39,954 nucleotides of DNA. It comes from a virus. Lineage: Duplodnaviria > Heunggongvirae > Uroviricota > Caudoviricetes. Within the stretch, counting starts at the first letter, position 1, and each line of letters opens with the position of its first letter. This document shows positions 31,649-37,028 of this stretch, in pieces. The stretch spans positions 1 to 39,954 of IMG/VR virus record IMGVR_UViG_2534681675_000013. One strand, written 5' to 3'. The translations under genes and the position numbers were made by a program. The notes under the pieces were generated by a model that made no database searches, was not told the origin of the DNA, and saw only the letters and a program-made list of their open reading frames with translations.

Positions 31649-33064
31649 ATGGCTACGTGGCAACAGGGTATTAATTCTGGTGGTTTTCTGGCTGGCATCG
31701 GTACGCAAAATGAGAATGCGCCAAAGGCAAGCGACATTAACGCAACGCTTGGTCTGATCCGCGAAAACAATGAACTGGCTCGCTCAGGTGCAAATAACGT
31801 TGGTCTGACCGCGTTACGTGGTCTGGCTGGAGTTGCTGATATTTACAATCAGGAACAGCAACAGAAAGCTATTAGTGCGTTCAATAAGGTTCACGCTGAT
31901 GCATGGGCTTCTGGTGATCCATCGGGACTATTTAAGTTTGCCCAGGAAAATCCAGCGTTTGTTGCACAGGCACAACAGGCGTTTTCCGGTCTTAATGATC
32001 AGCAACGCAACGATATGGGCGATTTAGCCATGAGGGCTAACGTCGCTCTTTCTCAGGGGCCGGAAGCCTACAGTAAATTCATTACTGACAACAAGGACAG
32101 GTTAAATCGCGTTGGTGCTAATGCTGACTGGATGATTCAGACAGGTATCCAGAATCCAGAGCAGCTATCACACATGCTGACTACTATGTCTCTCGGTGCG
32201 CTTGGACCAGAAAAGGCGTTTGCTGTTCAGGATAAGATGGCTGGTCGTGAAATTGACCGAGGCAGGCTGGCAGAGACAATCCGCAGCAATCAGGCTGGTG
32301 AAGCACTTCAGGCGAGAGGGCAAAACCTTTCCTATCAGTCAGCAATGACTGGGCACAATATCGCAGCACAACGCTTGGCTCTGGATCAGCAAGAGTTCGG
32401 GTTTAAGATGCAGCAAGCGCAGGAAAAGGCTCAGCAGTTGATTAGCGAAGCACCTAAGCTGTCAGTAAACATGGAAAAAGGCATCGAGACGGCTGTAAAC
32501 AATGCCACAGCATCATCAAACTCAGCCAATTCTATGAGTGCGCTTGCTCAACAGTTCAGAGCAGAAAAACCAACGACAGGTTTGTTCGGTAACGCACAGA
32601 ACATGTTCGCAAAACTTACCGGAAGCGATACGACATTGCGTGATTTGCGCATTCGCCAAAATGCCCTTGTTAACAGTCAGGTTCTTAAATTCCTACCTCC
32701 CGGCCCAGCAACGGATAAAGACGTTGAGATCGTTCGACAGGGTGCGCCAACTGACATGGATAACCCTGAGACGGTCGCAAGATGGCTTGATGCAATGGCA
32801 AACCTTGAGCGACGAAACGCGCAGTTTAATGAGTTTAAAGCTGAGTGGATGAGCGCGAATGGCAACCCTGGACAATCGCGTAATGGCGGTCAGATATTGG
32901 GGTTGGATGTTAAAAAAGGTGAATCATTGGGGAGTGCCGTTAAGCGGTATATGTCAATGAATACTGACGCAGCACCAGCGCAAGATTCGACACCTTCAGG
33001 AGAACCACGGAATCAGGTTGGATCATATACCTCAAAATCAGGCATTCAATTTACGGTGGAATGA
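31649..33064 (+). CDS. Ejection protein (P22 gp20-like)
   Basis: 471 aa, same size and position as P22 gp20. Confidence 0.85.
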
Positions 33065-34902
33065 TGAAAGTAACTGCAAACGGTAAGACATTTACCTTCC
33101 CTGATGGTACGAGCACGGAAGATATTGGATCTGCCATTGATGAGTATTTTGCTGGACAGTCTGTTCAGCAACAAACTGTCAGCCAGGATAGCAATGAACC
33201 AGCACGTGAAGAACCATCATTGATGCAACAAGCTGGCGATTGGCTCACTGGTGGTCAAAGTGCAGGGCAAATTGCAGAACAGGCTGGTCGTGGTCTGGTA
33301 AACATACCATTTGACGTATTGCAGGGTGGCGCAAGTCTGATTAATGCAATCAGTCAGGGGCTTGGTGGACCCAAGGTTTTGGATGATGTTTATCGTCCAG
33401 TAGACAGACCGACAGACCCCTACGCGCAAGCCGGTGAAACAATTGGTGGGTATTTAGTTCCAGGAGTTGGAACGGCAGGAAGCATGGCTATTGGCTCACT
33501 GGCAGAGGCTGCAAATCAGAAAGGCGATTTCGCACAAAATGCAGCAAGAAACGCCGGAGTTAACCTTGCCGCTCAGGGGGTTCTTTCCGCAGCAGCAAAG
33601 GGAATAGGGCGTGGAATAACGGCTATAAAAGGTGATATTGCGCCAGAAGTGGCGAAGAAAATTGCCACATCAGAATCGATGGGCGTGACACCAATGACAT
33701 CTGATGTTATCCCGCCGAAAAATGCTTTCACTCGCGGCCTTACTCAGGATGCCGAGGGGGCTTTGCTCGGGACAGGCTCAAAGAGAGCGGAGCAATATGC
33801 AACGCGTAGTAAGCTGGTAAGCAATTATTTTGACCGTTTTGGTGAGTACAACCCTGATGATGTGGTGAAATCTCTGACCACCACGTTAAGGGGGCGGAAG
33901 GATGCCGCTGGCGCTGTTATCAATGACGTCACCAATAAAATGGGTAATGCCGCAGTTGATACCACAAATACCATGAATGCTCTGAATACAGCGATCGCAA
34001 GACAGGAACGGCTTGGGACTTCAGCCAATCAAAGCCTGCTTACATCCTTGCGTAACCTACGTGAAGAATTAGCAAACCCTGCAACTGATTTGGATGTTAC
34101 GTTTGATCTCTTGCGTCAGCACAGAACAGCATTTAGATCTAATGTTCAGGGAGATTCTATGGTCTTCCCCAACCAGGCAAAAGCAGCTACCAATATGGTA
34201 GAGAATGCAATGTCAAAAGACCTTCGTAACGCAGTTGCAAAAAACCTCGGTGCGTCAGACGCAGCAAAATACCTTAAAGCAAATTCCGATTATGCAAACG
34301 TTTATAATAAGGTGCTTAATAAAAACATTGCTAACAAGCTCAACAAGGCAAGCAGTGAAGCCAGTCCTGAACTTATAAATACCGTTGTATTAAGCAGAAA
34401 GCCATCTGACGTGAAACGAATCTGGAGCGCATTGGATGATAAAGGGAAAGATGCTATGCGTGCAGCTTACGTCAGCAAAATAGCGGAAAAGGCCGGTGAC
34501 TTTCCAGCCAAGTTCATCACTGAAGTTAATAAGCTTAAATCTCAGTCAGGCGGTGAAATTTACAACACTATTTTTTCTGGAAAGCACATGAAAGAGCTTG
34601 ATGCTCTTCATGAAGTTCTACAGCAAACAGCAAGGTCAGACACCGCAAATGTAGTAACTCAGACGGGGCAATCACAAGCCAACAGGATAAGGACGATTGG
34701 CGCAACTGCGACTCTTGGAGTATCAATGGGGCTTGAGGCTGGCTTTGGTGCAATGATGCGTTTGTATGAGTCCAAAGCCGCAAGGAATATGCTTCTTCGT
34801 TTGGCAAACACCAAAGCAGGAACACCAGCCTATGAAAGAGCGCTAAATAACGCTGCGAATGCCATCAGACCGCTGTTTGCTACTGAGGCAACACAGCAGT
34901 AA
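33061..34902 (+). CDS. Ejection protein (P22 gp16-like)
   Basis: 613 aa, ATGA-coupled to the gp20-like gene; size and position match gp16. Confidence 0.85.
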
Positions 34903-34926
34903 CGTATGGGAAATTGGATTCAATCG

Positions 34927-35316
34927 CTAACATTTTCTTTTTACTTTTCCAACAAAAGCTTTGGTTGAATCCATATTTCCATAACCGGAAATGGTTTTTG
35001 ACATTAAAACTGTTCCAGTAGGATGTATTACCCATGAGTCGATAACGCGTTGAGTTTCGCCATTCGCGCCGATTCCTATGATGGAGTTTTTAGACAATGC
35101 TTTGTAAGCCATGCCGCCCGCATCTGTCCCAGAATATGTGATGCTGGCATCTTCACCGCTTGTCTTAATGATGAATGTTCCACTAAAACCATCTTCTTCC
35201 GGATGGAAATTATTTCGTTCTGAATAGCTTATTCCGCGCATATCTCCAACGACCCAGCACTCTGCTGTAGCCCCAAAAGATATGAATAAGAACATAGCAG
35301 CAAGAAATTGCTTCAC
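34927..35316 (-). CDS. Small secreted protein (about 130 aa), cargo in the sieA slot
   Basis: GTG start after AGGAGG; predicted signal peptide VKQFLAAMFLFISFGATA with cleavage before ECW; cysteines near both ends of the mature protein; opposite strand to the virion genes. Confidence 0.5.
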   Translation of the reverse strand: MKQFLAAMFLFISFGATAECWVVGDMRGISYSERNNFHPEEDGFSGTFIIKTSGEDASITYSGTDAGGMAYKALSKNSIIGIGANGETQRVIDSWVIHPTGTVLMSKTISGYGNMDSTKAFVGKVKRKC

Positions 35317-35379
35317 ACCAACCTCCTTAGTTTTGAGCAGGATACCAGATGATAATGTGTAGTTGGAGTAGCGCGGTTG

Positions 35380-35452
35380 TAATGCAAGCATTTTGTTTTA
35401 GTTTTATGCTTGCTTGTATGTGTGCACAGTGTATATAATGCAAGCATAAATC
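35380..35452 (+). promoter_or_regulatory. Divergent intergenic region with sigma70-like promoter (TTGCTT-18-TATAAT) flanked by ATGCAAGCAT-type repeats
   Basis: -35/-10 hexamers read directly upstream of the 35473 start; three copies of a near-palindromic ATGCAAGCAT/ATGCTTGC motif around them. Confidence 0.35.
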
Positions 35453-35472
35453 ACAACAAAGGTGCTTGCATT

Positions 35473-36441
35473 ATGACTGAAAAGAAAAGTGGCGAAGGGA
35501 AAGCTAAGGGCGGGATCGCTCGCGCAAAGTCGCTGACTAAAGAGCAGCGTTCTGAAATAGCAAAGAAAGCAGCTGCTGCAAGATGGAAAAGTAAGATTCT
35601 CAGGGCAACTCATCGTGGTAACTTTTTAGATGATTTTGGCATTGATGCTGAATGTTATGTACTGGATGACGAGTCGAAAACTGTCGTTGTTACGAAAACT
35701 GGATTATCTCAGTTGCTAGGGATTGGTGAACATGCCAGGGATTTAGATCAACTGCTTGGCGCTCAGTATATGAGCAAATACCGAGATCTAGAATTGCAGC
35801 GAAAAATGGAAAATCCCTATAAATTTCAACTTACTTCGAAGTCTAAAACCGTTCATCAAGCGTTAGGTTATGACATTACAGCAATTGTTGATATTGGTAG
35901 GGCACTAATAGAAGCCAAAGATAATGACGATCTACCACAATCACGGTTAAAGGCAGCCGCCGCAGCACAGAGACTTATTAATGCCTCCGCTAAGGCGGGA
36001 ATTAAGGGGGTTGCGTATGCGCTTGCTGGTTATCGTCCAGAAGTTCAGGCTGTCATTGACGAGTTCAAAGCGTTTGTTCGTGAAGAGGCTCGTCAATATG
36101 AAAAGGAATTTCCAGATGAGCTATACGAGGAGTGGTATCGACTGTACGGCCTGAATAGGCCAGAGAAAGGACGGCCTATTCGTTTTGGGCAGCTAACCAA
36201 CATGCAGATATACACCCCGCTAGCAAAGAGTAAAGGTAAAATCCTTGAACAGATTCGAGCCAGCCGAGACGAGAACGGAAAACAATCTGATAAGTTGCAT
36301 CTGTTCCTTTCTGAAATTGGTGTCAAGGCTTTGCGTCAGCATATCGGTAAGCTTCTTGGGGTCGCAGCGATGAGTGAGACAAGAGAAGAATACGAAAAAG
36401 GAATAGAAAAGGTTTTTGGAAGAATGAAACCAGAAATCTAA
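35473..36441 (+). CDS. Hypothetical protein (323 aa) with basic DNA-binding-like N-terminus, cargo in the sieA slot
   Basis: Start MTEKKSGEGKAKGGIARAKSLTKEQRSEIAKKAAAARWKS after AAAGGTG; no family recognised with confidence; followed by a strong terminator. Confidence 0.6.
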   Translation: MTEKKSGEGKAKGGIARAKSLTKEQRSEIAKKAAAARWKSKILRATHRGNFLDDFGIDAECYVLDDESKTVVVTKTGLSQLLGIGEHARDLDQLLGAQYMSKYRDLELQRKMENPYKFQLTSKSKTVHQALGYDITAIVDIGRALIEAKDNDDLPQSRLKAAAAAQRLINASAKAGIKGVAYALAGYRPEVQAVIDEFKAFVREEARQYEKEFPDELYEEWYRLYGLNRPEKGRPIRFGQLTNMQIYTPLAKSKGKILEQIRASRDENGKQSDKLHLFLSEIGVKALRQHIGKLLGVAAMSETREEYEKGIEKVFGRMKPEI

Positions 36442-36446
36442 TTATG

Positions 36447-36471
36447 AAACCCACCGTCAGGTGGGTTTTTT
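36447..36471. terminator. Bidirectional rho-independent terminator between the 323-aa gene and mnt
   Basis: AAA-CCCACC-GTCA-GGTGGG-TTTTTT hairpin flanked by A-run and T-run; the two genes converge on it. Confidence 0.7.
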
Positions 36472-36708
36472 GTACAAATCCTTCAGCGTATCAAACACCA
36501 TCTTCTTAACAAGTTCGGACTGCTCATCAGCGAGTCGTTCTGCATCGTCGCGATATCCAGTCACAGGCGATGGTTTTGATAGAGCATCTTGGACGATTTG
36601 TAACAACTCGGAGTTCATTGATCTCCCATTCGCCTCCGCCCTGAATTTTAATTTCTCCCTTACTTCCATAGGCATACGGAAGTTAAAGTGCGGATCATCT
36701 CTAGCCAT
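36457..36708 (-). CDS. mnt: Mnt repressor (ribbon-helix-helix)
   Basis: 83 aa MARDDPHFNFRMPMEVREKLKFRAEANGRSMNSELLQIVQDALSKPSPVTGYR..., near-identical to P22 Mnt as recalled. Confidence 0.9.
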   Translation of the reverse strand: MARDDPHFNFRMPMEVREKLKFRAEANGRSMNSELLQIVQDALSKPSPVTGYRDDAERLADEQSELVKKMVFDTLKDLYKKPT

Positions 36709-36960: not shown

Positions 36961-37028
36961 AGTTGAAGCCCCAACTGCGGGAACAGTCAGGGCTTCGGTT
37001 GTCAGTAAATCTGTGGAGAAAAACCAAC

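Follow-up and report, generated by a model that had tools for sequence, protein, structure and literature searches.

What occupies the sieA slot of the P22-like (Lederbergvirus) prophage held in IMG/VR record IMGVR_UViG_2534681675_000013, and is it one system or two? The window analysed here is the whole stretch of 39,954 nucleotides of that record; over 2051 bp around the locus it matches a P22-like prophage in E. coli O111:H8 strain TW05614 with 100% identity. Between the gene for the ejection protein gp16 and mnt lie two divergent cargo genes, a minus-strand gene for a small, predicted secreted protein and a plus-strand gene for a 322-aa protein with a P63C domain. This gene order agrees with the first-pass annotation of the locus, which had also taken the site for the variable cargo position that holds the superinfection-exclusion gene sieA in P22 and had placed both genes outside the P22 virion module. 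Both points are borne out: P22-like slots differ in content, and neither gene is a virion or immI component, Arc/Mnt ribbon-helix-helix and P22 antirepressor domains (Pfam) being present in the neighbours only and in neither cargo protein. Its view of the pair as one two-gene module had to be abandoned. The reading we favour, with some reservation, is that the island comprises two distinct accessory cassettes (morons), each sufficient to itself and adjacent to the other in the sieA slot, one for a probable exclusion protein of the Hex family and the other for a P63C protein that most likely regulates itself.

Each gene is found without the other, and for this reason a two-gene operon or paired system was rejected. 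In phage Emek the Hex-like gene adjoins the gene-16 homologue, the genes after that are quite different, and P63C is missing. Conversely, E. coli elppa4 encodes an identical P63C protein beside a SieA gene, and phage vB_EcoP-611R6 carries the P63C gene beside an hkcB-like gene (phrog_5962). Among 80 viral contigs with a P63C gene, the partner in the sieA slot was Hex-like, hkcB-like, SieA or none. The P63C cassette (at least 80% coverage) is present in 46 of 5426 complete E. coli genomes and the Hex-like small gene in 146; the full two-gene arrangement occurs in 6. In viral contig IMGVR_UViG_2545824644_000015 the Hex-like gene lies downstream of the P63C gene and not upstream, and this reversed order is another sign of separate movement. 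Relatives of both genes also stand directly behind the CI repressor gene in other lambdoid phages, so that the two families alternate between that slot and the one occupied here.

The best start of the minus-strand gene is the GTG at 35316, 5 nt past the Shine-Dalgarno (SD) sequence AAGGAGG, which gives a protein of 129 aa; the RefSeq start is an ATG at 35295, 7 codons later, giving 122 aa. The GTG is preferred because the SD spacing and the length of the homologues, all of which are 129 aa long when complete, fit the longer protein. Read from the sequence, the N-terminus (MKQFLAAMFLFISFGATA, followed by ECW) has the form of a signal peptide: it contains a basic residue, a hydrophobic core 11 residues long, and an A-x-A site. 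Cys20 and the C-terminal Cys129 are conserved in the homologues. The secreted protein of about 130 aa with terminal cysteines described in the first pass is thus recovered. The AlphaFold2 (AF2) model is a soluble eight-stranded beta-barrel beginning at residue 19.

No match to the small protein was obtained in PADLOC, Pfam or NCBIfam. The family became apparent from PHROG 2651 (phrog_2651), which is matched full-length both by the window protein (9.2e-61) and by Hex of phage 434 (1.4e-58) and also includes Sf6 gene 38 and Emek orf129. BLASTP aligns the window protein with 434 Hex end to end (27% identity, E 4e-12), the alignment spanning the signal peptide, an SECW(I/V)V motif and a C-terminal FVGxV..C. 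A tblastn search of phage genomes returned near-identical copies of the gene in Emek and ST-35, and 27%-identical matches in 434, lambda imm434, HK446, HK633, Sf6 (gene 38) and Sf101. In these six phages the match sits at the 3' end of the repressor gene, and the matched open reading frame (ORF) of 434 is annotated 'repressor protection protein', that is, Hex.

As related in PMC3564112, citing Susskind & Botstein 1980, a Salmonella lambda imm434 lysogen excludes P22 and a hex- lysogen does not. In the lysogen hex is on the PRM transcript (PMC3564112). Besides membership in PHROG 2651, 434 Hex shares with the window protein its length, a signal-peptide-like N-terminus, a cysteine right after the predicted cleavage site and a C-terminal cysteine. 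Both are encoded in lysogen-expressed prophage slots, and the reported target of Hex, P22, is the phage type that carries the gene here. The two differ in that hex overlaps the end of cI in the PRM operon, whereas the window gene lies in the sieA slot with a leader of its own, and in that the published RecA-interference mechanism conflicts with the predicted export.

We propose that the window protein would be exported to the periplasm, its signal peptide being cut between ATA and ECW, and would fold as a small beta-barrel, probably closed by a Cys20-Cys129 disulfide. Expressed from the translation start region that sieA uses in P22, it would most likely do the job of SieA by another route, P22-like superinfection being blocked at the envelope or DNA-entry step; in short, the small protein is a likely periplasmic stand-in for SieA. 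For Hex itself the model of PMC3564112 is a cytoplasmic one, in which the protein acts on RecA-stimulated repressor cleavage, and export was never considered there. The same work describes a stable fragment, 'sHex', corresponding to Glu43-Asn103 of a 158-aa ORF, and an arrest of growth when full-length Hex was overproduced. The first residue of sHex, Glu43, is Glu19 of the 134-aa 434 ORF (phage 434 hex, L015 1501-1905) and coincides exactly with the predicted signal-peptidase site, which calls the cytoplasmic RecA model of Hex into question.

Several points weigh against an exported exclusion protein. The only study of Hex has a cytoplasmic, RecA-dependent effect on repressor cleavage (PMC3564112), a misfit for a periplasmic protein; the identity of the window protein to Hex is only 27%; and no promoter for the Hex-like gene was found within 35317-35472 on either strand, be it by a generic scan or by eye. 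The protein might accordingly stabilise lysogeny, as reported for Hex, rather than exclude phages, or it might be a periplasmic binding or inhibitor protein (lysozyme inhibitor, virulence factor). We hold this to be unlikely, given that the exclusion phenotype of hex is the founding observation of the family, that the gene occupies the sieA translation start at the sieA position, and that RecA and the repressor are hard to reach for a secreted protein.

The likeness to P22 SieA lies in the position between gene 16 and gene 9, in the leader and start region and, likely, in the purpose, which is to stop entry of P22-like phage DNA (Leavitt et al., 10.1101/2023.08.15.553423). SieA is a protein of the inner membrane, whereas a soluble beta-barrel and a cleavable signal peptide are predicted for the window protein. 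Sequence similarity is absent: two tblastn SieA probes matched loci L003, L046 and L049 and not L001, the locus identical to the window. A leader, TGGTATCCTGC(A/T)CAAAACTAAGGAGGTTGGT, together with the GTG start is common to all alternative minus-strand genes of the slot, and divergence sets in immediately after the GTG. The same leader stands before P22 sieA, epsilon34 gene 14 and the hkcB-like genes. The shared leader and SD, with the GTG 5 nt past the SD, were located in P22 (L005 1819-1851), in epsilon34 (L004 2495-2535) and in the window (35314-35348). The annotation of P22 sieA begins at an ATG four codons beyond the shared GTG; this GTG may be the true start of P22 sieA.

The plus-strand protein (RefSeq WP_000136767.1) is a full-length, significant member of its family, matching Pfam PF10546 at 52.7 bits (cut-off 26.1) over residues 199-286 and phrog_2384 at 1.7e-104 over residues 6-321. 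The family includes 933W L0095 and ST104 orf23 and occurs in phages of Proteobacteria, Actinobacteria and Firmicutes; a protein search gave at least 1682 significant matches, mostly of about 320 aa. Matches were absent from PADLOC-DB v2 and NCBIfam, PDB sequences searched with a profile of the P63C alignment yielded none, and in the searchable literature only three papers bring up P63C with phage, a single time each and in passing, no functional work having been found. In the AF2 model (predicted local distance difference test, pLDDT, 78.6) the basic helical N-terminus (motif at aa 9-38) is of low confidence, residues from about 43 to 135 form an alpha/beta domain modelled with confidence, and the C-terminal domain, which holds PF10546, is helical. 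Foldseek comparison of the model with viral models (BFVD) gave sub-threshold matches only, and their shared theme was Bro-N, AntA-N, Rha, 'repressor domain' and KilAC proteins. A KilA-N domain was not detected by Pfam.

The basic N-terminus contains GGxARAxxLTxEQRSEIAKKAAAARW, the stretch in which the window protein and ST104 orf23 are most alike. In the form GG(A/K)ARAxSLTxEQRSEIAKKAAAARW it also makes up the C-terminal end of many free-standing proteins, about 75 aa long and from a variety of bacteria (P0144, P0149, P0162, P0213, P0225 and others), a few of which bear the NCBI labels 'RNA-binding protein' or 'YciG'. Since it occurs as a free-standing protein, the motif looks like an autonomous nucleic-acid-binding module. 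Neither this module nor the box architecture described below is part of the PF10546 definition. In the alignment around 'VGIIALVDEATGYQ', VGIIALVDEATGY is strongly conserved among distant P63C subfamilies (933W, Burkholderia, Pseudomonas, Erwinia). The subfamily of the window has AGIKGVAYALAGY in its place, and the acidic pair is therefore not universal. A mosaic allele (L011 5001-6583) agrees fully with the window in its promoter and first ~40 residues, the identity of the remainder being no more than 53%; between this allele and mnt a ClpP-like protease gene is inserted, and the same ClpP annotation is found in E. coli GF66.2.

Upstream of the P63C gene the promoter TTGCTT-18-TATAAT reported in the first pass is present, and its layout recurs in homologous loci, with the -10 as TATAAT, TATTAT or TTAAAT. 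Its -35 fits the consensus at 3 of 6 positions, and on account of this weakness a generic promoter scan did not list it. The promoter is covered by short inverted boxes, of which we count four, where three repeats had been noted earlier; likewise the protein, whose basic N-terminus had been recognised correctly, has 322 and not 323 aa. Taken as a whole, 35380-35473 form one imperfect 34-nt dyad. In the window at large the box 10-mer is not above chance (7 found against 5.6 expected, at most one mismatch allowed), but the clustering of the boxes is far above it, with about 4 boxes per 136 nt against a background of 0.135.

The conservation of the repeats, a point on which the first-pass proposal depended, was followed with the 8-mers TGCAAGCA (forward) and TGCTTGCA (reverse), allowing one mismatch. 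In 63 unique upstream regions the boxes keep the order forward-reverse-forward-reverse, with distances to the ATG of about -88, -65, -33 and -9. The proteins encoded there are from 100% down to 30% identical to the window copy, and the hosts include Enterobacterales and Burkholderia phage Bups phi1. In an alignment of 41 sequences the invariant or nearly invariant columns are the four boxes, the first two bases of the -10 and a short CACA motif, and the spacers vary. That motif, (T)TTCACA/ATCACA, lies between boxes 3 and 4 (35450-35457 in the window) and could be the transcript start region or a fifth contact. Loci L074 and L079 retain a single forward-reverse pair, some 60 nt upstream of where the gene begins; set against L047, they appear to have undergone a deletion between boxes 2 and 4 in which the promoter was lost.

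Inverted boxes can also pair in a nucleic acid, and they might act as hairpins, for example as a translational operator that masks the start codon or as an attenuator, and not as protein sites. Boxes 3 and 4 could form a 14-bp stem that reaches the AUG (-16.4 kcal/mol, z -5.4), boxes 1 and 2 could also pair (-10.3 kcal/mol), and some free-standing relatives of the N-terminal motif are, as mentioned, labelled as RNA-binding. However, the -10 overlaps box 3, so that the transcript should begin at or after the end of this box and the 5' arm of the stem would lie outside the mRNA. In a covariation test the pair count was 90.6%, compared with 90.7% when columns were shuffled, and double changes were not in excess; the changes that occur break pairs without compensation, and every box is conserved as sequence. 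An Rfam scan over the dyad region returned only miRNA-precursor look-alikes far below threshold. The hairpin reading is not supported and appears quite improbable to us: with no covariation and a 5' arm that would not be transcribed, the boxes behave as sequence-specific sites.

As to what may bind these sites, the P63C gene is the only gene that always accompanies the boxes. When 80 further loci of the wider P63C family were added, the upstream repeats were seen to change with the residues that follow E(Q/E)R of the N-terminal helix. Helices with x[DEA][IQ]A go with the repeat GCAAGC (about 70 unique loci), KESS (933W type) with ACGTGC (7 of 7), SESA or SEQG with GCACGC (3 loci) and TERA or TARA with TAGATA (3 of 3); the homologue of Midgardsormr38, the one case that lacks the basic N-terminus, has no boxes. 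Helix codons and boxes are, on the other hand, only 30-120 bp apart and co-inherited, and linkage or shared descent may explain part of the association, which suggests recognition but does not prove it.

The P63C protein would most likely bind the four TGCAAGCA/TGCTTGCA boxes via its basic N-terminal helix. Since the -35, the -10 and the ribosome site all fall under the boxes, it would thereby fix its own level, irrespective of the prophage repressor; the cassette would be a stand-alone unit composed of promoter, four boxes, gene and terminator. The first pass had instead considered control by the repressor. The boxes do overlap the promoter in the manner of operators, and their GCAAGC core resembles the centre of the SlyA consensus, TTAGCAAGCTAA, so that the prophage repressor or a host factor might be the ligand, placing the gene under lysogenic or host control. 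Yet the same boxes are found behind many CI repressors, in immI, near lysis genes and in Burkholderia and Pseudomonas phages, their sequence switches with the N-terminal helix of the protein itself, and the Mnt and Arc operators are located elsewhere. This makes a repressor or host factor very improbable. Boxes that travel with P63C across immunity types and genera, and that change with its own helix, argue for self-regulation, and most likely the P63C gene controls itself.

P63C genes recur at certain places. An 80%-identical copy in Klebsiella prophages directly follows the CI repressor (helix-turn-helix, HTH, plus S24); it is on the same strand, comes after a terminator and has its own promoter. 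ST104 orf23 (30% identical) has the same place behind a CI-type repressor, as do the relatives in Erwinia phage Midgardsormr38 and in many viral contigs, and HTH/S24 repressors account for 8 of the 10 otherwise unclassified ORFs that neighbour P63C genes. No conserved partner gene was seen at these cI-downstream loci beyond variable small ORFs. Elsewhere copies precede lysis genes. Use of the slot behind cI is also made by rexAB, hex and bstA (PMC8585504). The repeated presence of P63C in the lysogen-expressed slots of rex, hex, bstA and sieA, and a two-domain build like that of BstA, lead to our best guess, made by analogy, that P63C may be a single-protein anti-phage function acting on nucleic acid. 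A position that does not fit is that of the 933W homologue, which lies in the nin region next to roi and not in a classical lysogen-expressed slot. Of the earlier proposal, a lysogen-expressed defence or conversion role is still the most likely reading, backed for the small protein by homology to 434 Hex; for P63C a defence role is suggested by position only.

A regulator of the prophage's own life cycle would be a different matter. P63C is said to have been defined in 2002 as the C-terminal partner of Bro-N/KilA-N-type domains, and a protein of the antirepressor, Roi, Bro or KilA type could act on induction or on the choice between lysis and lysogeny. Weak fold matches to Bro-N, AntA, Rha, 'repressor domain' and KilAC point this way, the 933W homologue weakly matches the Ant PHROG and adjoins roi, and the gene in the window adjoins mnt-arc-ant. 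All of these fold and Ant matches are below significance, however. The cassette moves among unrelated immunity systems and sits in accessory-gene slots, and, having a promoter and a terminator of its own, it is not part of host phage circuits. We consider a life-cycle regulator a minority possibility.

A close parallel to the anti-phage protein that we prefer is BstA of prophage BTP1, which gives abortive infection as a single protein and has aba as its self-immunity element. Like P63C, BstA is a two-domain protein of about 310-320 aa, its gene has a promoter and a terminator of its own, and across the gene start extends a short DNA element bearing repeats, aba in one case and the boxes in the other. 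P63C homologues share the identical slot directly behind cI, the window copy being in the sieA slot instead. The elements differ: aba has terminal direct CCCGCC repeats, whereas P63C has four inverted boxes over its promoter. Homology to BstA was rejected, as the PADLOC BstA model gave nothing up to E 10 for four P63C proteins (BTP1 BstA as control, 1.9e-124) and the hhalign probability was 6%. That P63C works like BstA is therefore put forward as an analogy, and by their position the boxes are a candidate self-immunity element like aba. Taken further, P63C cassettes might represent a large, unrecognised class of single-gene prophage defence, in which a helix of about 30 residues would read a lineage-specific box, the four boxes, much in the way of aba with BstA, would mark or titrate the protein on 'self' DNA besides setting its level, and the body of P63C would act on incoming phage DNA. 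This extension is speculative, and we rate its chances as low.

The features of the locus are collected below.

Features of the sieA slot and its surroundings in the window
Feature	Position	Strand	Remarks
gp16 ejection protein gene	33061-34902	+	
Hex-family gene, 129-aa predicted secreted protein	34927-35316	-	Predicted signal peptide aa 1-18, mature Glu19-Cys129; predicted 8-stranded beta-barrel
Gap of 156 bp between the two cargo genes	35317-35472		
Leader and ribosome-binding site of the 'sieA sub-slot'	35317-35348	-	SD AAGGAGG at 35322-35328; common to alternative minus-strand genes
P63C cassette control region	35349-35472	+	Left recombination joint near 35349
Box 1	35382-35391	+	ATGCAAGCAT, forward
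Box 2	35406-35415	-	ATGCTTGCTT on the plus strand, reverse; contains the -35
-35 TTGCTT	35410-35415	+	
-10 TATAAT	35434-35439	+	18 nt from the -35; two-base overlap with box 3
Box 3	35438-35447	+	ATGCAAGCAT, forward
Box 4	35462-35471	-	GTGCTTGCAT on the plus strand, reverse; between SD and ATG
P63C-domain protein gene, 322 aa	35473-36441	+	WP_000136767.1; Pfam P63C, phrog_2384
Hairpin terminator	36446-36472	both	Serves the P63C gene (+) and mnt (-); right border of the P63C cassette
mnt	36457-36708	-	Arc and Repressor_Mnt domains
sar antisense RNA of immI	36961-37028	-	Rfam RF00262, 92 bits; expected for a P22-type arc-ant unit

The P63C cassette extends from about 35349 to the terminator. Its left joint is where the similarity of P22 and epsilon34 to the window ends, after '...GGATACCA', and the control region is kept together with the P63C gene in phage vB_EcoP-611R6 and in the E. 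coli loci. On the right, the hairpin at 36446-36469 has -16.2 kcal/mol on the plus strand (z -4.7), with a T-run after it, and -14.2 kcal/mol on the minus strand (z -4.3), with a weaker tail, UUUCAUAAUU. The strong bidirectional terminator of the first pass is thus plausible for both strands, though asymmetric; a Rho-independent terminator is annotated at the equivalent place in epsilon34. The GC content is 41-44% in the cargo genes and 47-50% in the ejection genes. Beyond mnt follow arc, the sar RNA, ant and then the tailspike gene. On the opposite strand, past the tailspike gene, comes an acyltransferase family gene (locus L001 9314-10051), situated at or beyond the end of the window; it is probably an O-antigen-modifying conversion gene.

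If these readings are true, hex of phage 434, an old and poorly understood gene, would be linked to the sieA position of P22-like prophages. Hex-family proteins would then be predicted to act in the periplasm. The published cytoplasmic model would need revision, and a second way of blocking the DNA entry of short-tailed phages would be added. The P63C family, which is without a described function, would gain a testable regulatory mechanism with a defined operator code and a strong positional argument for a lysogen-expressed role, and the matched sets of helix signatures and boxes would provide a natural specificity series for a very small DNA-recognition module.

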